From an uncultured Pseudohongiella sp. (lineage in GTDB: Bacteria > Pseudomonadota > Gammaproteobacteria > Pseudomonadales > Pseudohongiellaceae), in assembly GCA_965227635.1 (NCBI GenBank), contig OZ245763.1, forward strand, positions 1,854,896 through 1,918,895: a stretch of 64,000 nucleotides of DNA. Direction: 5' to 3'. Below the pieces are notes generated by a model. It did not search any database and was not told where the DNA came from. It saw only the letters and a program-made list of their open reading frames with translations. The translations under genes were made by a program, and so were the position numbers. Shown in pieces: positions 28,469-60,780 of this stretch; position 1 is the stretch's first letter, and each line of letters opens with the position of its first letter.

Positions 28469-31400
28469 ATGGACCTTTTTCGAAGGCTAATGATGCGCAT
28501 AACAATACCAAAGCATGAATACAGTAGGTCGTATGTTGGCGGGAACAAGTTATCTAGGCTAGCTAACCCTGAGCTAGAATTGGACGTAGAGATAAATGAA
28601 AGCCAGCGGAATGGTATATACGAAATACGAACAAGTTTGCCTCCCCCTTTAAATACAATATATCTCTTGAAGCCTAACTCGCGATCTGATGTGCCAGACA
28701 ATGCTTGCAGTTTAAAGTTTGTCATACCTTGCCCCATCAATGAAATCACGCCAGACACAAAACTGAAATGGCATACATATTCGGTTGAAAAGGCGCTACT
28801 TGATCCTAGAGAAATCACTGAATCATGGAAAGACAAGTTTAGATTTGTAGAAGAAAATCTTGAGGAACGAAAGGTAGGGCTAAGGCTGCCACAGATCGGC
28901 GCTCTGCATGCAATTTCTGCATATTTTTCATTAACAAGAAACACTGAGCCAGCGACAATTGTGCTTCCAACAGGAACGGGAAAGACTGAAACAATGCTTT
29001 CAACCGCGGTTTCTGGGCAATGTCAGAAAATACTGGTGCTTGTACCGTCAGATGCGCTAAGAGCTCAAATATCTGAAAAATTCTTGAACCTGGGGTATTT
29101 AAGAGAGTTAGGGGTTATTAGTTTTGATACAGTGAATCCTCACGTTGCGGTTCTTAAGAAAGGTCTTAAGTCTGATGAAGAAGCGTCGGATATAGTCGAG
29201 GGGTCAAATATAATAGTAGCTACAGCTTCCATACTCGCTGCTAGTCAACAGTCCTCTGTCAAACTGATTTGCGAAGCTGCATCACACCTCTTTGTAGATG
29301 AAGCGCATCACATTTCCGCTAATACTTGGTCGTCAATTCGTGAGCTGTTTGAAGGGAAGAAAATATTACAATTTACAGCTACACCATTTCGGAATGACAC
29401 CAAATCACTTGGCGGGAAAATTATCTACAACTACTCAATGGGAGAGGCTCAGGAGGCTGGGTACTTCAAACATATTAATTTGCTTCCAGTAGAAGAATAC
29501 TACGAAAATGAGAAAAACAGAACCATAGCAACTAAGGCAATTGCACAATTAAGAGAAGACCTAAACAATGGATTGGATCATATTGTCCTTGCGCGAGTGA
29601 CTTCAAGAACAAGTGCAAATAACGTAGTAGAGATATATGAACAAATCGCGCCTGAGCATAATCCAATATGCGTGCATTCTGGCAAATTAAAGTCAGAAAA
29701 CTCCGAGAATTTAGAAAGGCTACTATCAAGAGAATCACGAGTTATTGTTTGTGTGGATATGCTTGGTGAAGGTTATGACTTACCGAATCTAAAAATTGCA
29801 GCGATACATGACCATCACAAAAGCCTAGCTGTAACTTTACAATTTATAGGGAGGTTTACCCGCACAGCTGAAAACATTGGGAACGCATCTGTAGTTGTAA
29901 ACATAGCTGAACCTGAGGTGGAGAAAGATTTAGAAAAGCTTTATTCGCAAGGAGCAGACTGGGATGTGGTATTAAGGCGTCTTGCAGAAGACCGCATATC
30001 TCGAGAAGTAAAATTGCAGGAGGTGGTAGACAATCTAAAAGGTAAAGGCAATTTGCATACAGAATTGTCGCTTTGGAATTTAAAGCCGGGGTACTCGGCA
30101 ATGCTATTTCGAGCAACTTGCGAGGAATGGAATCCAGAGAATTTCAAAAATTCACTACCGCGTTGTGAGGAGTATTGGTACTCAATTGCAGATGACGAGA
30201 AGATTTTAGTCATTCTCACTTTACAGAATCTGAAGGTTAAGTGGGGCGACTACGAAGAGCTGAGTGACATAGTATACAAGCTGCTAATTGCCCATTGGGA
30301 TAGTGATAGAAATTCTCTCTACATTTACTCGAACGACTATAAAGCCTTTAGAACTGAACGTTTGGCGCTTGATCTCTGTGGTGAAGAGTGCGAGCTGATG
30401 AGCGGTAACCAAATCTTCAATGTCTTCAACGGCATGGAGTTCCCACTTATCAGAAACCTAGGAGCTTCAAAAGAAGGCGCAATTAGTTTTACTCAGTATT
30501 TTGGTCCAAATGTTACCGATGGTTTGTCGCAGATTGAAGCCTCGCAATCAAAGTTGAGCAATTGTGCAGGTATGGGGTATATCGAAGGGGACCGAGTAAT
30601 CTGGGGGTGCTCAGAAAAGAAAGGGAAAGTTTGGTCCGTCCAAAGTGGTGCCATATCAGATTGGATTGCTTGGGCAAATTCAGCGTGGGACAAAGTCATC
30701 GGTGGCGGGATAGATGAAGAAAATATCACTCGAAACTTTCTCAGGCCGACAAAAATTAATTCAGCCTACGGTGAACATCCAATTACGGTATTGTGGGGGG
30801 AGCATACTGCTTCAGCTCCCGAAGACAGCATTGTTATCCATTTTGGTGATGTTACCGTTCCAATGTATCTAGTTGATCTAGAATTGGTCGAACAACTAGA
30901 GTCTGGAGCATATAGAATTCGGTTCTTTACCGATGACATTGAAGCCACCTATGAATTTCTAATTTCAGATCAAGTGGCTCAAGGGTTCAGGTACACACTC
31001 ATTCAAGGGCCTGAAATATCCATACAGAAAGGGCGAGGAGACCTAAAACCGCTACCTGAATATATGGTCACTGATCCGCTGATTATCAATTATATAGATG
31101 GTTCATTTTCATACAATTGTTACTTGATTAGGGTAACTCAGGAAGTCGGGCGATATGATGCTAACAACATCGAAGTTATTGATTGGGATGGCATCGATAT
31201 TCGCAAAGAATCGATGGGGAAAAATATTGCCCAAGATAGTATTCAGTATAAGTCTTTTGATGAGCTACAGAGTGATTTTGATGTTGTTATAAATGACGAC
31301 AATGCTGGTGAAGCAGCAGATTTAGTTTGTGTTAAGGATTTAGGCGAAGAAATAAATTTGGCGCTTGTTCATTGTAAGTACTCCTCCCGAAATGAAGCGG

Positions 31401-31738
31401 GGGCTAGAGTCAAAGACCTGTATGAGGTGTGTGGACAATGCCAGAAAAGCGTGCGTTGGAAACATGTCGGTCTGCCGAGGTTATTTCAGCATATAAAACG
31501 TAGGGAGGCCACTTGGAGAAGTGAAGGTTACACTCGGTTTCTGAAAGGTCAGACTTCTGACCTTCTTGCATTGGCAAACAAGTCTAGAACAACGCCTTTA
31601 AATCTGCAGATCATCATTGTTCAGCCTGGATTGAGCTTGAACGTCTGTAGCCAAGATATGTTGAGATTATTGGGTAGTACATCACTGTATGTGGAGAAGA
31701 CAGCTAAAGCGAATTTTAGAGTCATTGGAAGCGATTAG
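28469..31738 (+). CDS. SF2 DEAH-box helicase with C-terminal Mrr-like restriction-endonuclease-type motif
   Basis: Motif I PTGTGKTE (aa 167-174), motif II DEAH (277-280), motif III TATP (303-306), motif VI QFIGRFTR (458-465). The C-terminal block GEAADLVCV-x12-LALVHCKYS (aa 947-972) follows the D...(Q/H)xK pattern. Confidence 0.85.
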   Translation: MDLFRRLMMRITIPKHEYSRSYVGGNKLSRLANPELELDVEINESQRNGIYEIRTSLPPPLNTIYLLKPNSRSDVPDNACSLKFVIPCPINEITPDTKLKWHTYSVEKALLDPREITESWKDKFRFVEENLEERKVGLRLPQIGALHAISAYFSLTRNTEPATIVLPTGTGKTETMLSTAVSGQCQKILVLVPSDALRAQISEKFLNLGYLRELGVISFDTVNPHVAVLKKGLKSDEEASDIVEGSNIIVATASILAASQQSSVKLICEAASHLFVDEAHHISANTWSSIRELFEGKKILQFTATPFRNDTKSLGGKIIYNYSMGEAQEAGYFKHINLLPVEEYYENEKNRTIATKAIAQLREDLNNGLDHIVLARVTSRTSANNVVEIYEQIAPEHNPICVHSGKLKSENSENLERLLSRESRVIVCVDMLGEGYDLPNLKIAAIHDHHKSLAVTLQFIGRFTRTAENIGNASVVVNIAEPEVEKDLEKLYSQGADWDVVLRRLAEDRISREVKLQEVVDNLKGKGNLHTELSLWNLKPGYSAMLFRATCEEWNPENFKNSLPRCEEYWYSIADDEKILVILTLQNLKVKWGDYEELSDIVYKLLIAHWDSDRNSLYIYSNDYKAFRTERLALDLCGEECELMSGNQIFNVFNGMEFPLIRNLGASKEGAISFTQYFGPNVTDGLSQIEASQSKLSNCAGMGYIEGDRVIWGCSEKKGKVWSVQSGAISDWIAWANSAWDKVIGGGIDEENITRNFLRPTKINSAYGEHPITVLWGEHTASAPEDSIVIHFGDVTVPMYLVDLELVEQLESGAYRIRFFTDDIEATYEFLISDQVAQGFRYTLIQGPEISIQKGRGDLKPLPEYMVTDPLIINYIDGSFSYNCYLIRVTQEVGRYDANNIEVIDWDGIDIRKESMGKNIAQDSIQYKSFDELQSDFDVVINDDNAGEAADLVCVKDLGEEINLALVHCKYSSRNEAGARVKDLYEVCGQCQKSVRWKHVGLPRLFQHIKRREATWRSEGYTRFLKGQTSDLLALANKSRTTPLNLQIIIVQPGLSLNVCSQDMLRLLGSTSLYVEKTAKANFRVIGSD

Positions 31739-31780
31739 CAGCTCTAATACATTTCTTGTGTTTGCGCTAAATTGAACACC

Positions 31781-33256
31781 ATGGAATCAGACATCCAGGA
31801 ACTAGCCTTACAAATTGACTCAGCGCTTGAGTCTGGCGCCACTGGTGAGCTGGATCGCCTAATTTGTGCGTGCGAAAATCAGCTTGAAAATGCAGAGGGA
31901 CTGACTAGGGTAATTCTTTGGTTCTATATTGCGAATTGCTATTCGGGTATCAATACTTCCCAAGATAACGTCGATTCTGTTTGGAGTTGGGAAAAGAACG
32001 AATTAATCTTTCAAGTTTTATCTCTTCGCAAAGCAGCTTCAGAGCCATCATTCGAATCATCGGATGTCATGATTCGTTGCAAGATATTAACCAATCTTGG
32101 AAATGTACTTAATCAAATAGGTAGGCCCATCGAAGCAATTAGGCTTTGGGATCAAGCATTGAGATACTATCCGATTTTTGCAATGGCTATTGGAAATAAA
32201 GGGAGAGGAGTCACAGAGTATGCCAACTATCTCTACGATCAAGGACATGCCGCGGTACTCGTTGCCGAAGCCAACAAGACGCTTAAGCAACTAACTAATA
32301 AAAGGTTGCTGTGGGACAGTGGGGAAGATACTAGCGCCAGAGCATATTTCATATCTGTTTTTGAGAACAACAACCGTAGCCTCGAAGAGGTGGGTTACGA
32401 TTATGAATTTGATTTAGACCGTTGGGCGCTAGGCAAAACAAAGGGGGAGCGAAAATACAGACAATGGTGCCTTGATCAGAATTTATTTCTTAATCCATTG
32501 AATGACATTATTACTAAAAGTGTGGCGGCGACTGATTCGCTGCACCTTCCAAGTCATACTTATGGGCTTGAAGAGCACCCTAGGTTTCCTGAGTACTATA
32601 ATCATTTAAAACAAGAATTTGTAACTGCAAGGTACTTGTACTATGAGGCAGGACAAGAGAAAAATCATTTTTCAAACCACGAAGTTTTTCTAGTGGATAG
32701 TTATAATGCCACTAGATTCGGATACCGCACCGAACAACTGAAGATGTCGTTCCGAATGGCTTACTCAATCTTTGACAAGGTCGCCCTATTTCTTAACGAC
32801 TATTTTTCCGTTGGTCTTAAAGCTAGTAGTGTTAATTTTAGAAACATATGGGGAAACAGGAGCAAAGATCAGTTTGTTCTGCACCCTTGCTTTGCTAGCA
32901 GTGTGAATTGGCCGCTAAGAGGATTGTATTTCCTCTCAAAAGAATTGTTTGACCCGAATTTCAATGATGTGGCTTCTCCAGATGCTAAAGAGCTGGCGAT
33001 CATAAGAAATCGAATTGAGCATAGGTTTCTATGCATTCAGCATTACTATTCCCAACATGATAGTGATATGGATTTTCAATACTATATTTCAATCGATGAT
33101 TTTGAAATTAAAACACTTCGAATCCTAAGGTTAGCTCGTGAAGCCTTAATTTATCTTTCACTTGCAATGCATCGTGAAGAAAAAATACGCGAATTTGAAA
33201 ACCCGGATTCGGTCAAACTACCTATCTACTCATTTCCCGTAGAAGAAAGGAACTAA
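31781..33256 (+). CDS. TPR-like plus C-terminal HEPN-domain protein (LA2681-like HEPN)
   Basis: TPR-like segment ILTNLGNVLNQIGRPIEAIRLWDQALRYYPIFAMAIGNKG. Rx4H HEPN motif RNRIEH at nt 33005-33022. The track start at 31772 is TTG, and I prefer the ATG at 31781. Confidence 0.75.
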   Translation: MESDIQELALQIDSALESGATGELDRLICACENQLENAEGLTRVILWFYIANCYSGINTSQDNVDSVWSWEKNELIFQVLSLRKAASEPSFESSDVMIRCKILTNLGNVLNQIGRPIEAIRLWDQALRYYPIFAMAIGNKGRGVTEYANYLYDQGHAAVLVAEANKTLKQLTNKRLLWDSGEDTSARAYFISVFENNNRSLEEVGYDYEFDLDRWALGKTKGERKYRQWCLDQNLFLNPLNDIITKSVAATDSLHLPSHTYGLEEHPRFPEYYNHLKQEFVTARYLYYEAGQEKNHFSNHEVFLVDSYNATRFGYRTEQLKMSFRMAYSIFDKVALFLNDYFSVGLKASSVNFRNIWGNRSKDQFVLHPCFASSVNWPLRGLYFLSKELFDPNFNDVASPDAKELAIIRNRIEHRFLCIQHYYSQHDSDMDFQYYISIDDFEIKTLRILRLAREALIYLSLAMHREEKIREFENPDSVKLPIYSFPVEERN

Positions 33257-33293
33257 CAGCAAAGCCTTCCCCTTCTTATCTAAAATGCCCAAA

Positions 33294-33322
33294 GGGGACA
33301 CTAATAGTTTAATAGCTTAAGG
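33294..33322. repeat. Solo arm of the GGGGACACT element
   Basis: GGGGACACTAATAGTTTAATAGCTTAAGG, 38 nt after the HEPN gene stop. No clean partner arm. Confidence 0.6.
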
Positions 33323-33376
33323 AATGTTGAAGTGTATTCATTGGTTGCTGATCTGAAGGGTAGTTATCACTTAGAG

Positions 33377-33476
33377 GGATTCTAGCAACAGATACTCTCA
33401 GGAAATCGAGCCGTCTACGCATCGGGTTCAGCGCTAATAAGTCTCAGGAAGTTGGTGCCCAGATTCGGAAGAATCC
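33377..33476. repeat. ~100-bp direct repeat, copy 1 (diverged)
   Basis: GGATTCTAGCAACAGATACTCTCAGGAAATCGAGCCGTCTACGC...GTTGGTGCCCAG aligns with 33626-33725 along its whole length with scattered mismatches. Confidence 0.75.
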
Positions 33477-33601
33477 ATACACCCTTAAGGCTGTTTCTCC
33501 CCTGCAGGCTTCGCGCTGGCGCGCTCGTAGCAAACTGCTTGCGCAGTTTGTCGAACCACATCGCTGGTTCTCATCCAACCCCCGAACCCCGCGCATAATA
33601 T

Positions 33602-33625
33602 AGCCTCGCAAAGCGAGGCTTTATT
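33602..33625 (+). terminator. Rho-independent terminator-like hairpin
   Basis: AGCCTCGC-AAA-GCGAGGCT followed by TTATT. Confidence 0.55.
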
Positions 33626-33725
33626 GGAATCTAGCAACAGATACTCTGAGCCAATCGAGCCGCCTACGCGTCAGGTTCAGTGCTATTAAGTCTGTGGGGA
33701 GTTGGTGCCAGGGGCGGAATCGAAT
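33626..33725. repeat. ~100-bp direct repeat, copy 2, ending in a tRNA 3'-end-like sequence on the minus strand
   Basis: The reverse complement of 33702-33725 is GATTCGATTCCGCCCCTGGCACCA (T-loop, acceptor and CCA-like). No 5' tRNA half follows. Confidence 0.7.
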
Positions 33726-33778
33726 CTATCGGGGAATCGCAGAAAATGTCAGGTTTTGTTAGGTTTTTGCAATCCATG

Positions 33779-33814
33779 TACCAACAAAAATACCAACAAA
33801 AATACCAACTAAAA
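33779..33814. repeat. Three tandem 12-mers TACCAAC(A/T)AAAA
   Basis: TACCAACAAAAA TACCAACAAAAA TACCAACTAAAA. The palindrome CTGTAGTGCTACAG (33815-33828) follows immediately. Confidence 0.8.
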
Positions 33815-34346
33815 CTGTAGTGCTACAGATGATTGGCAAAATATCATCGTATCAGTTTGCTTATATTTTCTTGCTTATCATCAGACGATTAGCGCAACCC
33901 TCCGCTCTCAAATACCTAAAGAGCGATGTATCTATAGTCTCATCTCGTCTCCGGAACACAGGAGGATGAATAGTGAATTTTCAATAAATGGTAAGGATTG
34001 GTAGGGTATCTGCCCATTTATGTAGCCACCCTTAGGATCGTAATTGTAGGCAACAGATCTGGCGGAATTGTAATTTCATTTCTACCTGGACGCCGAATTG
34101 CGAAGGAATATAACATCCCAGGTTGTCCCAAAAGAGACATTAGGGTTTTCTTGAGCAACTATTCGGAGGTAAGTTCCAGTGAATTCGGCGTAATCTCATC
34201 GACTAAGCAACGCACCAAGCCAGGTGGGCGCATGGAGGTTGATGGAATTATTGCGATGGTTGATTTGACGGGATTTCAGGTGGGCATATGTGCAAGAAAC
34301 TGACTATTGGGTTGCAAAATTATTTTACAGCCATGGTGATTAATAG

Positions 34347-34685
34347 ATGATGGATCAAGTTGTCCCAATTCTTCATGTAAAAGAAGCTAAAAAAACGGCG
34401 GAGTGGTACACACGCCTTGGGTTTGAAGTCGAAGGAGAGCATCGCTTTGCGCCAAATCTACCTCTGTACATGTTCTTACGAAGACAAGACAGTGCTTTGC
34501 ATTTGTCTGAACATGGCGGAGATGCCAGGCCAGACACTCTATTATATTTCTATGTCAGAAACATAGAAGATGTGGCGAATGAGTTTGGGGTAAAAATTAT
34601 TGAACAGCCTTGGGCGAAAGAGATTCACCTCACAGACCCAGATGGTAATCGATGGCGAATTGGAGAAAGGCGAGAATCAGTTTGA
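34347..34685 (+). CDS. Glyoxalase/bleomycin-resistance (VOC) family protein
   Basis: 112 aa. VPILHVKEAKKTAEWYTRLGFEVEGEH...HLTDPDGNRWRIGE is typical of the bleomycin-resistance-like VOC fold. Confidence 0.75.
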   Translation: MMDQVVPILHVKEAKKTAEWYTRLGFEVEGEHRFAPNLPLYMFLRRQDSALHLSEHGGDARPDTLLYFYVRNIEDVANEFGVKIIEQPWAKEIHLTDPDGNRWRIGERRESV

Positions 34686-34699
34686 TAACTGAACTTGGC

Positions 34700-35659
34700 T
34701 CATAGGTTATTCTCGCTGTCCATTAGAACGAATCTGCTTATTTCATTCAATGCTTCCGATCTAAAGATGCTATTGCCTTGTGAAGGAGGATCTTCAAGCG
34801 CATGCCCTGAGTCTTCATAGACAATCACGCGTATATTAGGATTTTCTAGTGCCTCCAATCGTCTTTCACTTTCTCTGGACGGCACATTAGTATCATCCTC
34901 ACCATAAAGAACGAGTGATCTTGCCTTTATTTGCGACCAATAAAAATTTGGATCAAAGTCACTCACCTTGCTCCAGAACTCTGGCTCACGCATGTATCGG
35001 ATTTGCGCAGTAGAGAGCAATGCGACTACGTATGAAATACCTGGAGGAATTCCCATCTGCTGCAAATTATAGTTCTCTTCAAACTGCAGTTGCTCTTTAG
35101 GTAGCACTGCTGATCCTACGACATTGACAATAAAATCCAGATTTCCATCCATTGTTGCTACTAGTGATGAGTATTTACCTCCCTCGCTCATGCCCACTAT
35201 ACCGATTTGACTTAAAGGCAATTCTGATTCACTTCTCAGGAAGTTGAGCGCGGCTAAGGTATCGGTAGCTAGATCTTCATAGTCTGCGCTTCGCCAATCA
35301 CCACCGGACTTTTCTGAACCGCGCTTGTCTGGCAGCAATACTGCAATCCCGCTGTCCTGCAAATGCTTGGTTAGTGTCAAATACCAGCCATTGGCCCGCA
35401 TACTGGGACCAGAGCCGTGAATAACAACGACACCAGGAAAAGGGCCTTCGCCCTCGGGAAGAAACAACATGCCCGCCAGATCGATAGACTGGGCATCGTT
35501 GTGGAAAAATACCTCTTCGTAATTGGTATCGTTAAGCCTGACGCCAGTAAATTGTCTCGCATTCATGGAATTGAACACGACTATTCCAATCTGGACGACA
35601 AAGGCCAGAGCTATCACTCCCAAGACGATCTGCTTTAATTTTGGCTTAATTAGGGTCAC
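34700..35659 (-). CDS. Alpha/beta hydrolase with N-terminal membrane anchor
   Basis: HGSGP oxyanion region, nucleophile elbow GMSEGG, C-terminal His (SGHALED). GTG start. Confidence 0.75.
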   Translation of the reverse strand: MTLIKPKLKQIVLGVIALAFVVQIGIVVFNSMNARQFTGVRLNDTNYEEVFFHNDAQSIDLAGMLFLPEGEGPFPGVVVIHGSGPSMRANGWYLTLTKHLQDSGIAVLLPDKRGSEKSGGDWRSADYEDLATDTLAALNFLRSESELPLSQIGIVGMSEGGKYSSLVATMDGNLDFIVNVVGSAVLPKEQLQFEENYNLQQMGIPPGISYVVALLSTAQIRYMREPEFWSKVSDFDPNFYWSQIKARSLVLYGEDDTNVPSRESERRLEALENPNIRVIVYEDSGHALEDPPSQGNSIFRSEALNEISRFVLMDSENNL

Positions 35660-35687
35660 CGCGAGACTCTATGATGATGACCACTCA

Positions 35688-35718
35688 AGTCTATAAGATG
35701 GAGTTACTACAGGATCAA
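35688..35718 (-). promoter_or_regulatory. MerR-type promoter (19-bp spacer) facing the hydrolase gene
   Basis: The reverse strand reads TTGATC-CTGTAGTAACTCCATCTTA-TAGACT. It has the same -35 and CTGTAGT half-site as the merT promoter. Confidence 0.5.
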
Positions 35719-35769
35719 CCCGTTTAAGCAATTCTATGTCTGCATTCAGCACATTAAGGAAGATAGGGC

Positions 35770-35800
35770 TTGTACCTGTAGTAGGTTCAGGTCCTATACT
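35770..35800 (+). promoter_or_regulatory. MerR-type promoter (19-bp spacer) for the HMA-thioredoxin gene
   Basis: TTGTAC-CTGTAGTAGGTTCAGGTCC-TATACT, with an imperfect dyad ACCTG...CAGGT. It lies 39 nt upstream of the ATG at 35839. Confidence 0.55.
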
Positions 35801-35838
35801 TTGTTCTCTAAATTGACCTTAATATGGATTGAGCACTA

Positions 35839-36543
35839 ATGAAAATGCGCTCCCAAACCTTTGCCAATGCACTTATTCTGACTATGGCAGGATTGATTTT
35901 GTCATTTTCAGTAAAAGCTGCAGCTGTGGATGCCGAGATGTCACAGGTAACCCTGTTCGTCGAGGGAATGATGAAAAGCCGCGGCGGCGTCACTTGAATG
36001 AGCTGACCCGATAGCGTGGTAGCAGCTCTGTCAGAGTTGCCCGGAATCCAAGAACAAAATATTACTGTAATTCTCGACCGAGATGCGTTTACTGTCGGAT
36101 ATGATAGTGAGCTGGTTTCGTTAGACCATATGTATGAGGCAATTCTAGAGTTGGGCTATAGCCCTGGGATAGAGGAACTTGGTATCGGCGAGACTGATTC
36201 AGATTCAAGCGGTAGTATTCCAGAACCTATTGCGTCCGCGCTTACTGAAGCCATTAATGGTGACAAGTTAATCTTCATCGACTTTTTTGCTGAGTGGTGT
36301 ATTGCCTGTAAAGTGCTGGAGGAGAACGCTCTTAATAACTCAGCAGTCCAACAGGTATTAGAATCGTATGTTGTATTGAAAGTCGATACAGACGCATATG
36401 CAGATGCGGCCAGGTTTTATAATGTGGTAGGAATGCCGACGCTTCTGGTGGTGGATTCAGCTGGAGAAGAAATTTACAGATCAGTAGGTCTTATCGAGCC
36501 TGAAGAACTTAGCGCGAAGTTAAGTCAGCTAGCCATCAAATAG
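35839..36543 (+). CDS. Periplasmic HMA-like domain / thioredoxin-like fusion with two in-frame TGA codons (putative UxxU selenoprotein, or a pseudogene)
   Basis: One frame reads signal peptide MKMRSQTFANALILTMAGLILSFSVKAAA, then VTLFVEGMMKSRGGVT-TGA-MS-TGA-PDSVVAALSELPGI...AILELGYSP (HMA fold), a linker, and a thioredoxin fold with WCIACK. The TGAs are at 35995-35997 and 36004-36006. The track only lists the part from GTG 36016. Confidence 0.6.
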
Positions 36544-36927
36544 GCTATCAATGATGGGACATTGTGCGACATTGCCTTGGCTACACTGATCTGCCATTTC
36601 GACTAGCACTTGTTCCATTCGCTTTAAGTCGCCAATCTTATCCCGTACTTCTTTAGCATGAACTAAAGTCAGTTCATGTACTTGCTTGCACGTGTAGTTT
36701 CCAGTATCCACCAGACTCATAAGGCTGATAATTTCTTTCAGCGTAAAACCAAGGCTTCTGCATTTGTGAATAAAGTGCAGGCGTTTGACGTCTTCATCGT
36801 CATAGATCCTCCTGCCATTAGAAGCTCGAACAGCTTTTGGCAATATGGCTTCGCGCTCATAGTAGCGGATCGTCTCGATATTCACGCCGGTTCGATCCGA
36901 TAGCTCCCCAATTGCGTACGGTTTCAT
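36529..36927 (-). CDS. merR: MerR-family metal-responsive regulator, Hg(II)-MerR-like
   Basis: HTH YAIGELSDRTGVNIETIRYYEREAILP. It has the Cys pattern of MerR (TCKQVHEL...; CSQGNVAQCPII). It is divergent from merT. Confidence 0.8.
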   Translation of the reverse strand: MKPYAIGELSDRTGVNIETIRYYEREAILPKAVRASNGRRIYDDEDVKRLHFIHKCRSLGFTLKEIISLMSLVDTGNYTCKQVHELTLVHAKEVRDKIGDLKRMEQVLVEMADQCSQGNVAQCPIIDSLFDG

Positions 36928-36951
36928 ACTTTCTCCTGCTTAACTATTCGC

Positions 36952-36982
36952 TTGATCCTGTAGTGACTACAGGATATAGAAT
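36952..36982 (+). promoter_or_regulatory. merT promoter/operator, MerR-type
   Basis: TTGATC-CTGTAGTGACTACAGGATA-TAGAAT with a 19-bp spacer. It contains the perfect dyad CCTGTAGT-G-ACTACAGG (36957-36973). Confidence 0.8.
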
Positions 36983-37030
36983 GGCCCTCAGCGTGTGAAA
37001 TTGCAAGGTATATCCGTGTTCGTAACTGGC

Positions 37031-37402
37031 GTGAAAAGTAGCAATAACGTGCGAGATCGAAGTGACGGCAAATGGCTAGCCACAGCAAGTATCGTTGGCG
37101 CTATCGTTGCTTCTTCTTGCTGTATTGCGCCCTTGCTGTTTGTAAGTGTTGGAATTAGCGGCGCATGGATTGGCAATCTGACAGCTTTGGAGCCGTACAA
37201 AATCTATTTTTTGGGGACCACAACGCTCTTTCTCGGCGCGGGGATTTGGCACCTGTATTTTAAACGACAGCAAGAGTGCATTGGCGATAGTTATTGTTCC
37301 AGGCCAATGTCTGGACTTATTACTAAAGCAGCGCTTTGGATTGCCATCATGCTTGTCATCGCATCGGCTACAGTCGATTTTTGGGCACCACTATTTTACT
37401 AA
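37031..37402 (+). CDS. merT: Mercuric transport protein MerT
   Basis: SSCCIAPLLFVSVGISGAWIGNLTALEPYK matches the MerT TM1 CC motif and loop. There is a second Cys pair, CIGDSYC. The start is uncertain (GTG 37031 or GTG 36995). Confidence 0.85.
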   Translation: MKSSNNVRDRSDGKWLATASIVGAIVASSCCIAPLLFVSVGISGAWIGNLTALEPYKIYFLGTTTLFLGAGIWHLYFKRQQECIGDSYCSRPMSGLITKAALWIAIMLVIASATVDFWAPLFY

Positions 37403-37430: not shown

Positions 37431-37790
37431 ATGAAAAAATCAAACTTATTTTTCGGCATGATGGCATTGTTAGCTATTGCTACTTATTCCGGGATAGGCC
37501 TCGTTTCGACAATTCAGGCCGAAAACGCGGTGCAATCTAAATTATCGATCTCAGAGCAATCCGTTTCGTTTTCTATTGAACGAATGACTTGCGCGGCATG
37601 CCCCGTCACCGTTAGTAAAGCAATGAAGGGTGTTGAAGGCGTGAGAGATGTTTCAGTTGATTACGAGACCAAAACTGCAACGGTAGCTTTTAACCCCGAA
37701 CTTACGAACATTGAAATCATTGGAGCCGCTTCAACCAATGCTGGGTACCCGGCTGAATTGATAAGTAAAGTGCCAGAAGAGAGTTTATAG
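37431..37790 (+). CDS. merP: Periplasmic mercury-binding protein MerP
   Basis: Signal peptide plus an HMA domain with MTCAACPVTVSKAMKGVEGV. GGAG Shine-Dalgarno 11 nt upstream. Confidence 0.85.
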   Translation: MKKSNLFFGMMALLAIATYSGIGLVSTIQAENAVQSKLSISEQSVSFSIERMTCAACPVTVSKAMKGVEGVRDVSVDYETKTATVAFNPELTNIEIIGAASTNAGYPAELISKVPEESL

Positions 37791-37804: not shown

Positions 37805-38044
37805 ATGTTATTGGAACACACTATGAGCAATACTTTAGCTGACATAACTCTTGATTCAGTCTTAACATGTCCGCACTGTGGTCATGCTCAGGAGGAAGTT
37901 ATGCCTACTGAAGCCTGCCTATTTTTCTATGAGTGCAAGCAATGCAAAAATTTGCTCAAACCCAAAGTAGGCGATTGCTGTGTTTTCTGTTCCTTCGGAT
38001 CAGTGGCATGCCCGCCGATCCAGGTTGGAAGTTGTTGTAGTTAA
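37805..38044 (+). CDS. Small Cys-rich GDCCVxC-motif protein
   Basis: CPHCGH, CKQCKN and GDCCVFCSFGSVACPP. I recall an NCBI family named 'GDCCVxC domain-containing (seleno)protein'. This copy is all-Cys. Confidence 0.7.
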   Translation: MLLEHTMSNTLADITLDSVLTCPHCGHAQEEVMPTEACLFFYECKQCKNLLKPKVGDCCVFCSFGSVACPPIQVGSCCS

Positions 38045-38066: not shown

Positions 38067-38612
38067 ATGTCTTTAGAATTGGTTGATGTAGGCAGTCTTA
38101 CGCGACCTGGTCCAATCGGTAGATTTGTAAGACTAGTTTTGGGGACACTTTGCTTGTACGGATTGTGGCAGCTTCTAGAAGTTGCTCCCAATGTTATCGA
38201 GCGTCCAGTTGATTTATTGCCAAACTTGAGCTTGATGATTCTTGTTGTCTTCTGTGTCTTTAACTATGTAGTCAATATTGGATTCAGCAAGGATTGGAAC
38301 AACTATCCTCTTATATTTTCTCTGTCGTTATTTCTATTAGTAGCACTGGTTGGTTTTTTGGCTAATGGCGACCCTGGCTCGACCTTTCTTGGGGTTCTAA
38401 TAGTTTTGTGGATGAGTTATTTCTATGCTCACTTGGGAGTTTCTTTTTTGCTGGCGTCTATACTCGCTACTCCGGGATGCGAAATGCGAGCAATACCAGA
38501 ATTGTTTGGTCGAATGATTAATAAAGCAACGAAAGAACACCACTGCCCCTCAAGTATCATCTCCGGAATTGATCGTTGGGAATATAAGCGGCAACGTAAG
38601 CTTCATAGTTAA
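38067..38612 (+). CDS. Membrane protein with conserved C-terminal Cys pair (unknown function)
   Basis: 181 aa, about 4 TM segments, with ATPGCEMRA and HHCPSS motifs near the C-terminus. Confidence 0.6.
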   Translation: MSLELVDVGSLTRPGPIGRFVRLVLGTLCLYGLWQLLEVAPNVIERPVDLLPNLSLMILVVFCVFNYVVNIGFSKDWNNYPLIFSLSLFLLVALVGFLANGDPGSTFLGVLIVLWMSYFYAHLGVSFLLASILATPGCEMRAIPELFGRMINKATKEHHCPSSIISGIDRWEYKRQRKLHS

Positions 38613-38844
38613 GATTCTGATAGATCCGCAAATTTCTTTAGGACTCTGTATGGCTTGAGGTTAATCGCATAGAAAGAGACCGTTTAGCCCTTTTGTTTCG
38701 ATCTGATTTTTCCCGTTAATGTCGAAACTGTTGCCCGCAGTTTGATCTACTTTTACGAGCAATTTTTGATAATAATCAATAAGGTTGACGATTTGGCGAA
38801 TGAGGGGGCTACAAATATGCGGGAAACTGGAGTATATTCCTGAT

Positions 38845-39249
38845 ATGAATAGCCGACTTAGCACAGCGCAAAGCCTGCCAGCCTTTCTGGCTGTGCTGTT
38901 GCTCGTGCTTGCCAATTCATCGCATATCCACCTTCGCTATTGTCTTGATGGAGCTGAAGCCCCTATATCAATTCATTTTGAGGGCGAAGAAACGCATGTC
39001 TCCGATGTGGCTACTATCGATAGCCTTGGTTCAGAAGACCTGGCTGATGTTGAAAGTGAGCTCTCGCTCGATAGTTTGCTAGCCAAATTCTCCAAAACGC
39101 CAACGGACTCCTTGGCCATTTTCTCGTTTAACTTTCCTGCAATTTCAGAGGCAGCCAAAACTCCTTTTCAACTTATCGGGCGTGAAATACTCCCTGATAA
39201 GCCTGATACTCTTCTTCCTCCTTCCCGCGCACCTCCCGCAATAGCCTAA
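38845..39249 (+). CDS. Small secreted protein preceding czcC (CzcI-like by position)
   Basis: Signal peptide-like LPAFLAVLLLVLANSSH and a C-terminal ...PPSRAPPAIA. The start at 38845 has GGAG upstream. Confidence 0.5.
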   Translation: MNSRLSTAQSLPAFLAVLLLVLANSSHIHLRYCLDGAEAPISIHFEGEETHVSDVATIDSLGSEDLADVESELSLDSLLAKFSKTPTDSLAIFSFNFPAISEAAKTPFQLIGREILPDKPDTLLPPSRAPPAIA

Positions 39250-39324
39250 GTTGTACCTCAACAATTCGACTCGGACAAACTGTCTGAGGCGTTGCTTGGC
39301 CTCACAATTTGCGGGAGAAAGACT

Positions 39325-40578
39325 GTGAACCTTAAATGTTTAGCGATTGTGGCTTGCGTCATGATCGCGAGCGCCACGTGTAATGCGCAGGAGATGCCAA
39401 CTGGCACGATCTCCTTGCGGGATGCGCTCGAAGCCACTCTGAATTCCAATCCAAGCCTCAGGAGTTTTCCTCTGCGCAATGAGGCGCTGCTGGGCAACAG
39501 AGAGATTGCCGACTTAAAACCGCCCTTCACAATAGGTGCCAATCTCGAGGATGCCCTGGGCACCGGTGACATAAGAGACTTCACCGGGGCAGAGGCAACT
39601 TTACGACTGTCCAATATTGTTGAGATGGGTGGGAAGCGGGCGGCTCGGGTAGGGGTTGTTAACCGAAGAATCGACACACTTGCTGCAGAGCAACGGGTTG
39701 CAGAGCTTGATTTGCTGATAGAAGTTGTACGGCGGTTTATTGACGTGGCAACAGCACAGGAACAAGTTGATCTACAAGCGCAATCTACTGCAATTGCCCA
39801 GCAGACAGTGCGCGCGATTCAGCCACTGGTCACAGCCGGTCAGGCACCGCAACTGGAATTGGGTCGCGCAAACGCAGCTTTGTTGCGAGCACAATTAGCG
39901 GAGCAGGCGGCGGCTGCCAGACTTGAGAGCGCCAGGATACGTTTGGCAAATATGTGGGCCAGCAATACACCGCAATTTGACGCCGTATTGGCAGACTTTC
40001 GGACCGTTGGACAAGCGGAATCGATTGAAACAGTCTTGGCAGGCCTTGCGGAAAATCCAGATATCGAATTCTATGCAGCAGAATCTCGTCTGTTGGAAGC
40101 ACAACTGCGCTTGGCGCAATCACGGCAGCAGGGCGATATATCCTGGTCAGCAGGAATTCGGCACTTAAGAGAGTTTGATGATACTGGCGTAGTACTGGGT
40201 GTCACTGTTCCTCTGTTCAACAAAGAACGTGCTTCCGGTGCAATCCGTACCGCACGTGCGAATCTTCAGGAAGTCGAGACTCGACGCCTCACAGCGCTCA
40301 ATGCGATTGAAGGGGAGATTAGATCTCTGCATCAGTCGTTGCAACAAGCAATTTTGGAAGTAAATACCTTACAGCAACAAGTAATTCCCGTTCTGCAAGA
40401 TGTGCAGCGGCAAACGCAGGCAGCCTATGCGGCTGGCAATTACAGTTATGTGGAATTTATAAGTGCCCAGCAAGAGTTTTTAGATGCTCAGCTATCACTG
40501 ATCTCCAGCGCCGGCAATGCTCACAAAATACGAGCTGAAATTGAGCGCTTGAGTGGAATTCCACTGTCTGGACAATAA
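39325..40578 (+). CDS. czcC: Outer-membrane efflux protein, CzcC/TolC family
   Basis: TolC-family repeats. I prefer the GTG start at 39325, after GGGAGAAAG. It directly precedes the MFP and RND genes. Confidence 0.8.
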   Translation: MNLKCLAIVACVMIASATCNAQEMPTGTISLRDALEATLNSNPSLRSFPLRNEALLGNREIADLKPPFTIGANLEDALGTGDIRDFTGAEATLRLSNIVEMGGKRAARVGVVNRRIDTLAAEQRVAELDLLIEVVRRFIDVATAQEQVDLQAQSTAIAQQTVRAIQPLVTAGQAPQLELGRANAALLRAQLAEQAAAARLESARIRLANMWASNTPQFDAVLADFRTVGQAESIETVLAGLAENPDIEFYAAESRLLEAQLRLAQSRQQGDISWSAGIRHLREFDDTGVVLGVTVPLFNKERASGAIRTARANLQEVETRRLTALNAIEGEIRSLHQSLQQAILEVNTLQQQVIPVLQDVQRQTQAAYAAGNYSYVEFISAQQEFLDAQLSLISSAGNAHKIRAEIERLSGIPLSGQ

Positions 40579-40591
40579 CGAGGACAAATTA

Positions 40592-44697
<4,106 letters not shown>

Positions 44698-44706
44698 ACA
44701 GTCAAC

Positions 44707-45585
44707 ATGCATGATCACACGCACCATAGCGATCAGAGCAGCCAACGGATTGGCTGGGCATTCGTGTTAAATGTTGGTTTCACTATCATAGAATTTGTGG
44801 GCGGCCTGCTTACCAACAGCACAGCCATTATGGCTGACGCCGTCCATGATCTTGGTGACAGTCTTTCAATCGGAACAGCATGGGTTCTGAGCCTGTTATC
44901 CAAAAAGAAAGCGAGCAGTTCATTTACTTACGGCTATAAGCGACTCTCTTTGATTGGTGCATTGATCAACGGAATTGTGCTTATAGCGGGTTCTGTATGG
45001 GTGCTGCTACAGGCGCTTCCCCGCCTGTTCGATCCAGTGATGCCAGAAGCAGAAGGCATGCTAGCGCTGGCAATTCTGGGTGTTGTGGTAAACGGATTTG
45101 CTGCTTATAAACTAAGTGCAGGAACGACGCTCAATGAAAAAGTACTCAATTGGCATTTACTTGAAGATGTATTGGGTTGGGCAGCAGTTCTAATTGTCTC
45201 AATCGTACTATTGATTGTGGAATTGCCAATCCTGGACCCGTTACTCGCTGTGGGATTTACACTGTTCATTCTGTTTAACGTAGCCAGAAATACTTGGCAC
45301 GCTGTCAAACTTTTTGTTCAGGCAGTACCTGAGCATGGACTAATCGAGAAAGTAAGGAAGGAGCTGCTAACTATTTCTCAAGTGGATTCAATTCATCATG
45401 AGCATGCGTGGTCGCTCGACGGTGAGTCAACAGTCTATACGGCTCATTTGGAAATGAGTTCTCCGATGTCATCAGAAGAACAGCTCTGGATTAAGAATCA
45501 GGTTGCAAAGAAACTCCAGGAATTTGAGTTTTCACATACAACAATTGAACTGGAATTTCCGCAAGAGGATTGTAGAGATGATTAG
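44707..45585 (+). CDS. czcD: Cation diffusion facilitator (CzcD/ZitB-like)
   Basis: His-rich N-terminus. CDF signature LLTNSTAIMADAVHDLGD. Six TM segments plus a C-terminal cytoplasmic domain. Confidence 0.85.
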   Translation: MHDHTHHSDQSSQRIGWAFVLNVGFTIIEFVGGLLTNSTAIMADAVHDLGDSLSIGTAWVLSLLSKKKASSSFTYGYKRLSLIGALINGIVLIAGSVWVLLQALPRLFDPVMPEAEGMLALAILGVVVNGFAAYKLSAGTTLNEKVLNWHLLEDVLGWAAVLIVSIVLLIVELPILDPLLAVGFTLFILFNVARNTWHAVKLFVQAVPEHGLIEKVRKELLTISQVDSIHHEHAWSLDGESTVYTAHLEMSSPMSSEEQLWIKNQVAKKLQEFEFSHTTIELEFPQEDCRDD

Positions 45586-45631
45586 TAGTGCTAGCTATTA
45601 TCTATGTGTTAAGTGAGCGGTGTAATTACAA

Positions 45632-46492
45632 ATGAGTATGTCAGATTCAATGGAAACCCAAGGCCAATCTAGTGAAAATATCTACGTAAGTAGATTTCGC
45701 GTGCCCAAGATGGATTGCCCATCGGAGGAGAACTTGATTCGCATGCAACTCGAACCTATCGAATCAGGTTTGAAACTGGAATTCGATATACCCAATAGAA
45801 TTGTGCGGGTTACTCACAAAAGCAATTCTGAAAAAATCGATGAAGCGATGCTTGGTTGTGGCTTCGGCTCAATAATGGAAGAGACCAGGCCGGCTGAGGA
45901 ACAAGAAAAGACTGCATATTTCAGCTCCAGTCAATCTGAAAATGATCAGGAAGCAAACACACTAAAATTATTGTTGGCAATCAACGCTTTCATGTTTGTT
46001 TTTGAACTCACGGTTGGGTGGATCGGACAATCCACCGGACTAATCGCCGATTCAATGGATATGTTTGCGGATGCGGCAGTTTATGGCTTGGCTCTATTTG
46101 CTGTCGGAAAAAGTGCCGGAAATAAACTGAATGCTGCACATCTGGCTGGTTGGCTGCAGATGATTCTTGCATTTGGTGCATTAAGCGAAGTGCTTAGGCG
46201 ATTCATATTCGGCAGCGAGCCGGTTTCTGTTCTGATGATGGGAATAGGTTGCATAGCGTTAGTTGCAAACGTTTCCTGCTTGTTTTTGATCTCCAAGAAA
46301 AAAGACCGTGGCGCGCATATGCGAGCGAGCTATATCTTCTCAGCCAATGATGTCATTGCCAATTTGGGTGTGATTGTCGCTGGGATTCTGGTGGCCTGGA
46401 CCGGTTCCAGATATCCGGATTTGGCTATAGGTCTTATTATTGGAATCGTTGTTCTAACCGGGGCAGTCCGAATACTCAGAATTCGTAACTAG
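45632..46492 (+). CDS. Cation diffusion facilitator-like transporter with N-terminal HMA-like domain
   Basis: N-terminal FRVPKMDCPSEENLIRMQL (MDCPxEE-type HMA), then a TM domain with LIADSMDMFADAAVYG. Confidence 0.75.
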   Translation: MSMSDSMETQGQSSENIYVSRFRVPKMDCPSEENLIRMQLEPIESGLKLEFDIPNRIVRVTHKSNSEKIDEAMLGCGFGSIMEETRPAEEQEKTAYFSSSQSENDQEANTLKLLLAINAFMFVFELTVGWIGQSTGLIADSMDMFADAAVYGLALFAVGKSAGNKLNAAHLAGWLQMILAFGALSEVLRRFIFGSEPVSVLMMGIGCIALVANVSCLFLISKKKDRGAHMRASYIFSANDVIANLGVIVAGILVAWTGSRYPDLAIGLIIGIVVLTGAVRILRIRN

Positions 46493-53474: not shown

Positions 53475-53601
53475 GACAGGATAGGTCCGCCTGCTACATA
53501 CGCAGGCAGCTTCTTCAAACTTATCTAATAGCACTAGATTCGCGTGTCAATTCGACTTCGCGGCCTTTGTGCTGTGTTTGAGTAATTGTTGGGAAATTGA
53601 A

Positions 53602-54906
53602 ATGGGAACTTGGAAAGATTCTACGAAAATGGCGACTGCTCTGCTGTGGTGGTCTTTGAGCATATGGATGATGCCTGTGCATGGGCAATTCATTCCAGAT
53701 GATGAACTACTGTTAGCAGACTTGACGCGAGCGGTCATCCGACAAAACGCTGGCTTAACTTCTCGTGAACTGCGAGTTCGAGCGAGCCGCGCACTGACTG
53801 AGAGCGCGGGAGCGCTTGATGATCCCAGGGTGAGTTATTCTGTAGCGCCATCTTCTATTGGCACGGATATACCCAGTGACTTTGGCAATGCATTGAGAGT
53901 GCGGCAAACGTTTCAGGTCTCTCAATTATTTCCATGGCCAGGAAAGCGGCGACTTCGCACTGAGCTAGCCGAAGCGCGGGCAGAGATCGAAGAAGCGAAC
54001 TACGAGCAGTTACTGGTTTCACTGGTTCAGCAAGTCAGGAGTTTGTGGTCAGAACTATGGTTCGCCGATCAGGCGTTAACGGTTAATGCTGAACATTTGG
54101 CTTTGTTGAATGACCTTGAAACTGTGGCATCGACGCAGTATGCAAACGGACTGGGGTTGCAACAGGACGTGTTGCAAATTCAGACCAGCCGGGTGGCATT
54201 GCAACACAGGGAACTGGTACTGAATCAGGAAATTCGACGCTTGCAGGCCCGGATCAATGACCTCCTCAACCAGTCCGCCGACACCTCCCTCGGGCTGCCA
54301 GGGCAACTACTGCCCATTCCGACATTGCCTGGTCGCAACAATCTTCTGGAGTGGGTGCTGGAATCCGAGCCTGAGTTAATAGCTTTGCAGGCAAGATCAA
54401 GATTGGCGCTGAGAAATAAAGAGCTGGTGGAGTTGGAAGACTTTCCAGATCTTCAGGTCAACGCTGGCTACAACGAACTCTGGAACGATATTGATCAACG
54501 CACGCAGATTGGGATCAGTCTCAATATTCCATTGGACTTCGGTAAACGCTCAGCTCGAAAAGCGGCGGCGGGTTTTAACTACGCCAGTTCGCGAGCCGAC
54601 GTTGCTCGCTTGCGCAGCACTTTGGCAGCAGACCTGGAACAATTGCTTTCTACAGAGCAAGAGCTTGCTCATAGCATTGAGTTGTTCGAGACCGAGTTAA
54701 TTCCCAAGGCCGAACAAACTCTTGACGCAGCCAGCGCCAACTTTCGGGGCGGTGGCGGCAACTTTCAAACCTTGAACCAAGCGCAGCAACAATTGCTGAA
54801 TCTGCGACTTCAGATATCAGAAATGCAGGCTGACCGGCTGATCAGTATCAGCCAAATTGACAAATTAAGTGGGGGCCGACTGTGGCCCGTGGAGACTGAA
54901 CAATGA
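53602..54906 (+). CDS. cusC: Outer-membrane efflux protein, CusC/TolC family
   Basis: TolC-family repeats. The start is uncertain (53569, 53602 or 53629). The stop overlaps the next gene. Confidence 0.8.
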   Translation: MGTWKDSTKMATALLWWSLSIWMMPVHGQFIPDDELLLADLTRAVIRQNAGLTSRELRVRASRALTESAGALDDPRVSYSVAPSSIGTDIPSDFGNALRVRQTFQVSQLFPWPGKRRLRTELAEARAEIEEANYEQLLVSLVQQVRSLWSELWFADQALTVNAEHLALLNDLETVASTQYANGLGLQQDVLQIQTSRVALQHRELVLNQEIRRLQARINDLLNQSADTSLGLPGQLLPIPTLPGRNNLLEWVLESEPELIALQARSRLALRNKELVELEDFPDLQVNAGYNELWNDIDQRTQIGISLNIPLDFGKRSARKAAAGFNYASSRADVARLRSTLAADLEQLLSTEQELAHSIELFETELIPKAEQTLDAASANFRGGGGNFQTLNQAQQQLLNLRLQISEMQADRLISISQIDKLSGGRLWPVETEQ

Positions 54907-60384: not shown

Positions 60385-60780
60385 ATGGATTTTCCATTGC
60401 TGAAACGCCCATTGATTATGTCACTAGTTGTTCTGCTTGCGCTGCCTTTGAATACAGGCGCGGCAACCTGGATGGCAATGTCGATGGCGGAATCTGGTGA
60501 AGTTACAGAGGTTCTCGATTCCTCAAATAGCTTGCATCATGACCATCAACAGCATATGAACATGGGTAGCAAGCAATCCCTGGATTCGGAATCCAATCAC
60601 GAGCACGACTCTGAAGATTGTGATGAACATTGCATGTCCTGTAGTAGTCACTGCTACAGCTCAAGCATCACGTCAGCTGTAGTTGATTTTCAAAATCAGC
60701 GTAGCCTCCATGCTAGTACAACACCTGGCGTGACTCTTAATCGCGAATACCTCCTCTACCGGCCACCAATCCACGCCTAG
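60385..60780 (+). CDS. Small secreted His/Cys-rich protein preceding copA (paralogue of 9602-10033)
   Basis: AATWMAMSMAESG, DCDEHCMSCSSHC and a C-terminal YRPPIHA. Confidence 0.7.
   Translation: MDFPLLKRPLIMSLVVLLALPLNTGAATWMAMSMAESGEVTEVLDSSNSLHHDHQQHMNMGSKQSLDSESNHEHDSEDCDEHCMSCSSHCYSSSITSAVVDFQNQRSLHASTTPGVTLNREYLLYRPPIHA

Follow-up and report, generated by a model that had tools for sequence, protein, structure and literature searches.

A MerR-family regulator and three 19-bp-spacer promoters, a probable metal-responsive regulon that includes a Sec-x-x-Sec HMA-thioredoxin gene in an uncultured Pseudohongiella sp.

MerR-family activators act on promoters in which a spacer of 19-20 bp holds a palindrome (PMC1526738; PMC8113463). 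The classical proteobacterial MerR operator is TCCGTAC-N4-GTACGGA, and Firmicute mer operators are 9-4-9 palindromes in a 20-bp spacer (PMC1526738). Both the spacer-distortion switch of the MerR type and regulons in which one family member serves several promoters (CueR; CadR with cadA and zrd) are known. The present work concerns a 64,000-nt stretch of DNA (the window) from an uncultured Pseudohongiella sp. (GCA_965227635.1, contig OZ245763.1), in which one merR gene (36529-36927, minus strand) lies close to three promoters with 19-bp spacers, one before merT, one before a gene for a fused HMA-thioredoxin protein, and one facing an alpha/beta hydrolase gene. Judged from sequence and its conservation, the regulator probably drives the three promoters together as a metal-responsive regulon.

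The locus resembles the mer operons of Tn501 and Tn21 in the divergence of merR and merT, the 19-bp spacer with a centred dyad, the three cysteines of the regulator, and the position of the merR promoter, here a candidate, over the operator. By our own count, the dyad centre lies at spacer position 8 here and at 8.5 in Tn501. However, the operator is CTGTAG-N3-CTACAG and not TCCGTAC-N4-GTACGGA (PMC1526738), the window has no merA, two extra promoters serve non-mer genes, and the structure of Tn501 MerR (5CRL) matches the window regulator with only 77 bits. The CadR regulon of Pseudomonas aeruginosa (cadA and zrd) shares with the window an 8-1-8 operator core, a MerR-type mechanism, and a second promoter away from the regulator gene, which in the CadR case drives a small Cys-rich protein (PMC12301328). 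It differs in its outer flanks (ACCC...GGGT, compared with ATCC...GGAT in the window) and in its targets, and the window regulator is closer to structure 4UA1 (115.6 bits) than to CadR (84 bits). In GolS (golTS, golB, gesABC), one sensor acts on several 19-bp-spacer promoters with unequal operators, covering periplasmic and efflux functions. CueR (copA, cueO) is likewise a single metal sensor with several 19-bp-spacer promoters and both kinds of function (PMC1526738). The operators, metals and target genes of the window differ from those of CueR and GolS.

Site 1, the merT promoter (36952-36982, plus strand), reads TTGATC-CTGTAGTGACTACAGGATA-TAGAAT. Site 2, the promoter of the HMA(UxxU)-thioredoxin gene (35770-35800, plus strand), reads TTGTAC-CTGTAGTAGGTTCAGGTCC-TATACT, and site 3, the promoter of the hydrolase gene (35718-35688, minus strand), reads TTGATC-CTGTAGTAACTCCATCTTA-TAGACT. 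These 31-nt sites had been proposed in an earlier, sequence-only reading of the window; their coordinates, their 19-bp spacers and the CTGTAGT directly 3' of each -35 hexamer were all borne out when the sequence was read again. The perfect dyad that it described at site 1 is indeed perfect but larger than stated, being a 10-1-10 palindrome, ATCCTGTAGT-G-ACTACAGGAT, at 36955-36975. The register of the dyad within the spacer is the same in all three sites. Scored on the 6-3-6 core, site 2 (CTGTAG-TAG-GTTCAG) and site 3 (CTGTAG-TAA-CTCCAT) each match 10 of the 12 operator positions, and the half-site of site 3 near the -10 element matches four of six.

The heptamer CTGTAGT was found 11 times in the window, against 3.85 ± 1.91 expected, a count reached in none of 100 shuffles. 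The composite pattern TTGNNCCTGTAGT-N12-TANNNT has three exact matches in the window, all inside 1.3 kb, with an expectation of 0.27 matches even when two mismatches are tolerated. A 35-nt weight matrix was built from 76 distinct merR-proximal promoters of other genomes, the window sites being excluded; it scored site 1 at 37.6 bits, site 2 at 29.2 bits and site 3 at 16.1 bits. The next independent match in the window scored -1.0 bits, reverse readings of the same palindromes being set aside, and the maximum over 60 simulated 64-kb sequences was 8.4 bits. All three sites are real, confirming the original observation, and site 3 is the weakest of them. Further members of the regulon were sought before czcC, the CDF genes and the cus/cop clusters and in the gap 38613-38784, and no position scored above -1 bit. 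Because no other match in the window exceeds that value, there are exactly three sites, with none before the czc, CDF, cus or cop genes.

That the regulator encoded at 36529-36927 would control all three promoters, including two outside the canonical mer targets, was also part of the sequence-only reading, and it is supported by phylogenetic footprinting and by the correlation with presence or absence of merR. The comparative search for the motif upstream of orthologues, which that reading had suggested, was run on loci of other genomes (numbered with L). Where the HMA-thioredoxin gene adjoins merR or lies within about 3 kb of it, the same promoter was found in 12 of 12 other lineages sampled (L001-L006, L081, L087, L090, L091, L101 and L105), with scores of 19.8-37.4 bits; the two genes are about 2.7 kb apart in L005. 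The consensus of these orthologous sites is TTGnny-CTGTAGTAGGTwCAGr-N3-TAnnnT. The right half-site is consistently GTwCAG and not CTACAG, so the asymmetry itself is conserved. The 19-bp spacer is kept in every orthologous site, since a fixed-length weight matrix aligns them. Compared with Pseudohongiella L002, site 2 is 77% identical whereas its flanks are 37-39% identical. In two lineages the HMA-thioredoxin gene lies away from merR: L103 has no such promoter (best score -25 bits), and L107 has a decayed copy, TTGCAC-TTGTAGTAGGGTTAAGTTC-TATACT, which keeps the 19-bp spacer and scores 5.5 bits. The promoter thus tracks an adjacent merR, which is the strongest argument available that the adjacent regulator uses site 2. 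The outer operator bases of the merT and HMA-thioredoxin sites of each genome were also compared for co-variation, but with an invariant core this gave no information.

These data also bear on the idea that the adjacent merR controls merT only and that sites 2 and 3 serve another MerR-family paralogue elsewhere in the genome, with the same dyad. The dyad is common to a very broad clade and to CadR, and a genome may hold several MerR proteins: L005 and L101 have two each, and L091 has another beside a P-type ATPase. However, a paralogue encoded elsewhere would not be expected to leave the pattern seen, with the HMA-thioredoxin promoter in 12 of 12 other merR-linked lineages and absent or decayed in both unlinked ones. 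The second paralogues are only 32-33% identical, the classical MerR of Pseudomonas leptonychotis has 40% identity to the window MerR and an operator of the TCCGTAC type, and no other MerR gene is present in the window. Control of sites 2 and 3 by a paralogue is therefore considered quite unlikely.

The unit at site 3 has the alpha/beta hydrolase as its sole gene (34700-35659, minus strand; 319 aa), whose product has an N-terminal membrane anchor and matches Pfam BAAT_C, Peptidase_S9 and Hydrolase_4. Its start codon is right, because the N-terminus is conserved with L002 and L091. The gene adjoins the HMA-thioredoxin gene in window-type strains, in L091 (MerR 95% identical to that of the window) and in Pseudohongiella L002 (MerR 66% and hydrolase 70% identical). 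In all of these a promoter with a 19-bp spacer faces the hydrolase, with scores of 15.4-16.8 bits (16.3 in L091 and 16.8 in L002), so that L091 and L002, two of the 12 lineages with site 2, have site 3 as well. The L002 site reads TTGCTC-CTGTAGTACCTTCAGCTAT-TAGACT, with 11 of 12 core positions matched and CTTCAG as its right half-site. Identity to L002 is 81% over site 3 and 39-43% over its flanks; outside the sites the intergenic DNA cannot be aligned. Over both 5' leaders and the 51 bp that separate the -35 hexamers, identity is no more than 37-43%, with 39% for the interval 35719-35769 between those hexamers. Site 3 is absent from loci without the hydrolase (L087, L088 and L090). The divergent -35 hexamers of sites 2 and 3 stand 50-51 bp apart in four lineages (the window, L081, L091 and L002), and this constant distance between the back-to-back sites may reflect an architectural constraint.

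Site 3, or less likely site 2, could instead have arisen from the merT promoter as a duplicate or remnant no longer in use by the regulator, the hydrolase then being expressed constitutively at a low level or from another signal. A duplication would account for the 13 consecutive bases (TTGATCCTGTAGT) common to sites 3 and 1, and disuse for the degenerate -10-proximal half-site of site 3 and its 16 bits compared with 37.6; distant hydrolase homologues have no such promoter. It would not be expected that Pseudohongiella keeps the -35 element, the left half-site, the 19-bp spacing and the -10 element while the intergenic rest has diverged (39-43% identity), nor that its right half-site is the better one (CTTCAG, core 11/12). 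In addition, the intergenic region holds no alternative promoter-like site: a consensus promoter scan of 35660-35838 found none with a 16-18 bp spacer. A disused copy is thus regarded as unlikely, and use of site 3 by the adjacent regulator is preferred. A promoter of this kind as a general trait of the hydrolase family was considered and rejected on a metagenome scan, in which homologues 50-58% identical were found without the site; the hydrolase was therefore recruited to the regulon in this clade only.

The sequence-only reading had also pointed to a fourth, shorter palindrome at the edge of the block, CTGTAG-TG-CTACAG (CTGTAGTGCTACAG, 33815-33828, no strand assigned). Its coordinates stand, and -35 and -10 elements sought beside it by inspection of both strands were not found, as had been reported; an operator role is not upheld, given the wrong spacing and the restriction to one strain group, and the palindrome was not assigned to the regulon. 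It might nevertheless be a fourth functional site of the regulator, for example a decoy or repression site, as both half-sites are perfect, no such palindrome is expected by chance, and site 3 lies about 1.9 kb away. Set against this are the half-site spacing of 2, where the other perfect palindromes in 108 loci all have 3, and the missing promoter elements. The palindrome is found only in window-type strains, L081 having the broken form CTATAGTGCTACAG. It also lies about 110 bp inside the block edge, beside TACCAACAAAAA repeats, and could equally well serve in recombination or be a relic. A regulatory function for it is thus very unlikely.

Several other features were observed at this edge. 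The TACCAACAAAAA unit just upstream of the palindrome (33782-33814) has one extra copy, a 12-bp insertion, relative to other aligned strains. A fragment resembling a tRNA 3' end (TGGTGCCAGGGGCGGAATCGAA, 33703-33725) was read by eye, and two 68-nt direct repeats precede it (33377-33444 and 33626-33693). ARAGORN runs on the window and on six related loci gave no tRNA, so this tRNA-like end is only a by-eye fragment; an Rfam scan of the whole window gave no match. Strains differ to the left of this fragment. A pair of genes for a helicase (ResIII/DEAD) and a HEPN_LA2681 protein (28469-33256) is a strain-variable insertion that ends at the fragment; it is absent from L083-L085, where the left homology ends at about 27733. 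At the corresponding edge of the metal block in L105, a phage-type integrase adjoins a longer fragment, read by eye as tRNA-Phe-like. Given the tRNA-like fragments and the L105 integrase, the edge looks like an island integration hotspot.

The regulator itself is a 132-aa protein with a MerR-family helix-turn-helix, a dimerisation helix and three cysteines, Cys80, Cys115 and Cys123. It matches Pfam MerR_1, MerR-DNA-bind and MerR. Its top-scoring NCBIfam family is that of Hg(II)-responsive MerR (TIGR02051), at 132.3 bits and under the cut-off of 150.85; the CadR-PbrR family (TIGR02047) follows with 116.5 bits, under its cut-off of 151.45. In a search of solved structures, the best match was 4UA1 (115.6 bits over residues 4-130), which the search output calls only 'Regulatory protein' and which we take to be the Hg(II)-bound MerR of Bacillus megaterium; Pseudomonas putida CadR (84 bits), PbrR (79 bits) and Tn501 MerR (5CRL, 77 bits) scored lower. 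The metal-ligand cysteines of Hg(II)-responsive MerR proteins are Cys79/82, Cys114/117 and Cys123/126. The window's Cys80, Cys115 and Cys123 have cysteines of 4UA1 as their counterparts in the alignment and do not vary among 21 homologues, but the three-cysteine feature is not discriminating, because CadR and PbrR have the same cysteines. In the structure-search alignments, Cys115 and Cys123 are eight residues apart, whereas the Bacillus MerR has one residue more, the window loop between the last two cysteines thus being one residue shorter than in 4UA1, and CadR has one fewer. A second MerR-family gene was sought in the 64-kb window and not found. The merR gene is divergent from merT with site 1 between them, and a consensus scan gave a candidate minus-strand merR promoter, TTCACA-17-TATCCT (36971-36999), a sequence match only, which overlaps the site 1 operator in the layout expected for divergent autoregulation. 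The exact regulator protein occurs on many contigs, and one 4.3-Mb contig is identical to the window over 30529-36600.

The shared CTGTAGT half-site had been put forward as defining a small regulon here. It is not special to this locus, as the operator belongs to a large MerR clade. In a scan of relatives with one genome per species (80 loci, regulators 47-71% identical), a CTGTAG-N3-CTACAG dyad with at most two core mismatches was found just upstream of merR in 77 of the 80, and almost all of these dyads lie in a 19-bp spacer framed by TTGnny...TAnnnT. For CadR of P. aeruginosa, the preferred site has been measured as AACCCTGTAGTTACTACAGGGTT (PMC12301328). The 8-1-8 core of site 1, CCTGTAGT-N-ACTACAGG, is identical to this CadR core; one base differs among the three outer positions on either side. 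Since the operator is common to the MerR clade and to CadR, the motif alone names neither the regulator nor the metal.

The neighbours of the regulator divide the clade. Among the loci L001-L108, every regulator with at least 61% identity to the window MerR has the Sec-x-x-Sec gene linked to it and none has a merA of its own, whereas those at most 58% identical are mostly divergent from merT-merP-merA. The merA active-site motif was present in 45 of 92 sequences scanned (91 loci and the window), and 47 matches to the window MerR lie in loci with the merA motif and without the UxxU gene. L005 and L101 carry this merR type together with a separate second mer operon with merA, under a 32%-identical paralogue. 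Within the subclade the divergent partner varies: merT-merP in the window, merC in L101, the genes for a GDCCVxC protein and a 181-aa protein in L001-L003, and unk154-czcCBA in L004. A search of the 64-kb window for merA found neither the active-site motif nor a pyridine-nucleotide disulfide oxidoreductase, and the label 'mer (mercury) regulon' is for that reason interpretive.

Hg(II) is the best guess for the inducing metal, but an operator of the CadR type and the presence of czc and CDF genes nearby make Cd(II) or Zn(II) possible. In the latter case the architecture would be the same but the inducer would be Cd(II), Zn(II) or Pb(II), and the regulator would be a CadR-like sensor for efflux (czcCBA, CDF) and periplasmic metal handling. 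The operator fits this, as the site 1 core is identical to that of the preferred CadR site, although clade members 47-58% identical stand beside merT-merP-merA with the same operator. The neighbourhood can be read both ways. In L004 the regulator gene and unk154-czcCBA diverge directly from either side of the operator, RND or CDF exporters are neighbours in L003, L005, L091 and L105, and merA is not nearby; against these, the partner genes in the subclade include merT and merP in the window and merC in L101, and GDCCVxC also occurs in a merR/merT-merP-GDCCVxC operon of Pseudomonas leptonychotis with the classical TCCGTAC operator. The protein itself misses the NCBIfam MerR cut-off (132 vs 150.85) with 116.5 bits for CadR-PbrR, and its Cys115-Cys123 spacing of eight is intermediate between Bacillus MerR and CadR. 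On the other side are its 115.6 bits to 4UA1, presumably the Hg(II)-bound Bacillus MerR, compared with 84 to CadR, and the name 'Hg(II)-responsive transcriptional regulator' given by one source to a 92%-identical protein. A Cd(II)-, Zn(II)- or Pb(II)-responsive regulator is thus a tenable, if less favoured, possibility, and Hg(II) remains the preferred inducer.

Some observations weigh against a three-promoter mercury regulon as a whole. With 16.1 bits, site 3 is close to the bottom of the range of the matrix's training promoters (minimum 8.6, median 41.2). The 50-58% identical hydrolase homologues stand in a housekeeping context, after an aldo/keto reductase gene near malic enzyme, with no metal genes nearby. 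As the operator core is the CadR motif, a CadR-like paralogue elsewhere in the genome could use the sites. Finally, merA is missing from the window and from all loci of this MerR subclade except L005 and L101, which weakens the mercury assignment.

The gene served by site 2 (35839-36543, plus strand) encodes a protein whose N-terminal signal peptide is followed by an HMA domain and, at the C-terminus, by a thioredoxin domain with WCIAC (Pfam HMA and Thioredoxin). Two in-frame TGA codons (35995-35997 and 36004-36006) give GGVT-U-MS-U-PDS, where U is selenocysteine (Sec), in the place of the CxxC of HMA domains. Every orthologue examined, down to 39% identity, keeps the two TGA codons together with the reading frame before and after them, and the product is read as a conserved Sec-x-x-Sec selenoprotein. 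In public gene calls the gene is split into fragments of 52 and 175 aa, or TGA is rendered as Trp, so that the family is largely invisible in annotations. Forms with Cys in place of Sec were considered and rejected: six 'full-length' database entries that were inspected all have Trp at both positions, meaning that TGA was read with genetic code 4. A hairpin at 36024-36038 is invariant, with no compensatory changes in the alignment fold, and folding of the single sequence does no better than that of shuffled ones (z = -1.18); it is only a candidate selenocysteine insertion sequence (SECIS) element. UxxU HMA proteins (NCBIfam NF041115) and GDCCVxC proteins are both among predicted selenoprotein families (PMC13188914). 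The HMA-thioredoxin protein shares with NF041115 a fold of the HMA type with Sec-x-x-Sec instead of CxxC as the metal site; unlike NF041115, the protein has a signal peptide, a stretch MKSRGGVT before the motif, and a fused thioredoxin domain. It scores 30.2 bits against NF041115 (cut-off 95), with the Sec-x-x-Sec motif kept and Pfam HMA detected. By these sequence criteria it probably represents a fused family related to, but separate from, NF041115.

Downstream of site 1 lie merT (37016-37402), a merP-like gene (37431-37790) and a GDCCVxC protein gene (37823-38044), all assigned by Pfam/NCBIfam, followed by the gene for a 181-aa membrane protein (38067-38612) in the same operon; all are on the plus strand. 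The merT start is probably GTG 37016 (128 aa) rather than 36995, as L087, L090 and L091 have ATG at the same position with a conserved AAGG upstream. In relatives, the merT leader has a conserved AAATTGCAAGG and a ribosome-binding site before the ATG. The site 1 operator is kept in all close relatives, with variation at the central base. The transcript may read on past 38612 into unk154, czcCBA and two CDF genes (38785-46492, plus strand), a possible continuation of the operon. The GDCCVxC and 181-aa membrane protein genes travel together in L001-L003, where they are the divergent partner of merR, and L109 has a 182-aa open reading frame after the GDCCVxC gene whose homology to the 181-aa protein is unconfirmed. 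The P. leptonychotis operon with GDCCVxC and the classical operator also lacks merA. A link between GDCCVxC and the CadR-regulated Zrd was sought, and no P. aeruginosa match was found among the best 120 of a protein search.

Other metal genes occur further away in the window. Two pairs of multicopper-oxidase and CopB genes lie at 10202-12924 and 60944-63861, and a cusCBA cluster at 53569-59827 includes a membrane-fusion protein with CusF domains. A Cys/His-rich open reading frame of 131 aa (60385-60780) has no family match. Two CTGTAGT occurrences, at 60639 and 60677, were considered as promoter elements and rejected, as they lie inside this frame as chance matches and are not promoter-like. 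A MerR-type site is absent from both multicopper-oxidase/CopB pairs, the cusCBA cluster and this frame.

In the regulon model, a MerR dimer would bind the CTGTAG-N3-CTACAG dyad that three sigma-70-type promoters carry within their 19-bp spacers. If it works as MerR is known to, the apo-protein would keep each promoter in a poor conformation; with a thiophilic metal bound, most likely Hg(II), it would distort the spacer, which would bring the -35 and -10 elements into line and allow transcription to begin. The first unit would comprise merT-merP-GDCCVxC-membrane protein, possibly continuing into czcCBA and CDF, with merR transcribed divergently from an overlapping promoter. The second would supply the periplasmic HMA(Sec-x-x-Sec)-thioredoxin selenoprotein, and the third the membrane-anchored alpha/beta hydrolase. 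As site 1 is a perfect palindrome and sites 2 and 3 have weaker -10-proximal half-sites, the predicted occupancy is site 1 > site 2 > site 3. Promoter geometry, motif statistics, conservation, co-occurrence with merR and the domains and cysteines of the regulator are direct observations, whereas we infer that the regulator binds the sites and depends on a metal, which metal this is, and where the transcripts begin and end.

The novelty lies in the set of targets and in the fact that it is conserved: a MerR subclade without merA has a periplasmic diselenol HMA-thioredoxin as its constant partner, joined in this lineage by an envelope hydrolase. These targets give the locus its interest, as a close and recurrent linkage joins a MerR-type sensor to a secreted protein with two selenocysteines as its metal site, without a mercuric reductase nearby. 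A bolder and tentative reading is that the subclade (at least 61% identical; marine Gammaproteobacteria and relatives) might have been rewired from mercuric reductase to this diselenol protein as its core target. The locus offers a testable handle on the role of the widespread merA-less merR-merT-merP modules, and on whether selenocysteine is used specifically for thiophilic metals in bacteria. Its three promoters of unequal operator quality form a natural graded series relating half-site degeneracy to induction threshold in the MerR family. If the bolder reading is true, Hg(II) or Cd(II) would be captured or handed off in the cell envelope by metal-induced, selenium-based chemistry, giving resistance independent of reduction, and the use of selenium by bacteria would be tied directly, at the molecular level, to the handling of mercury in the ocean.

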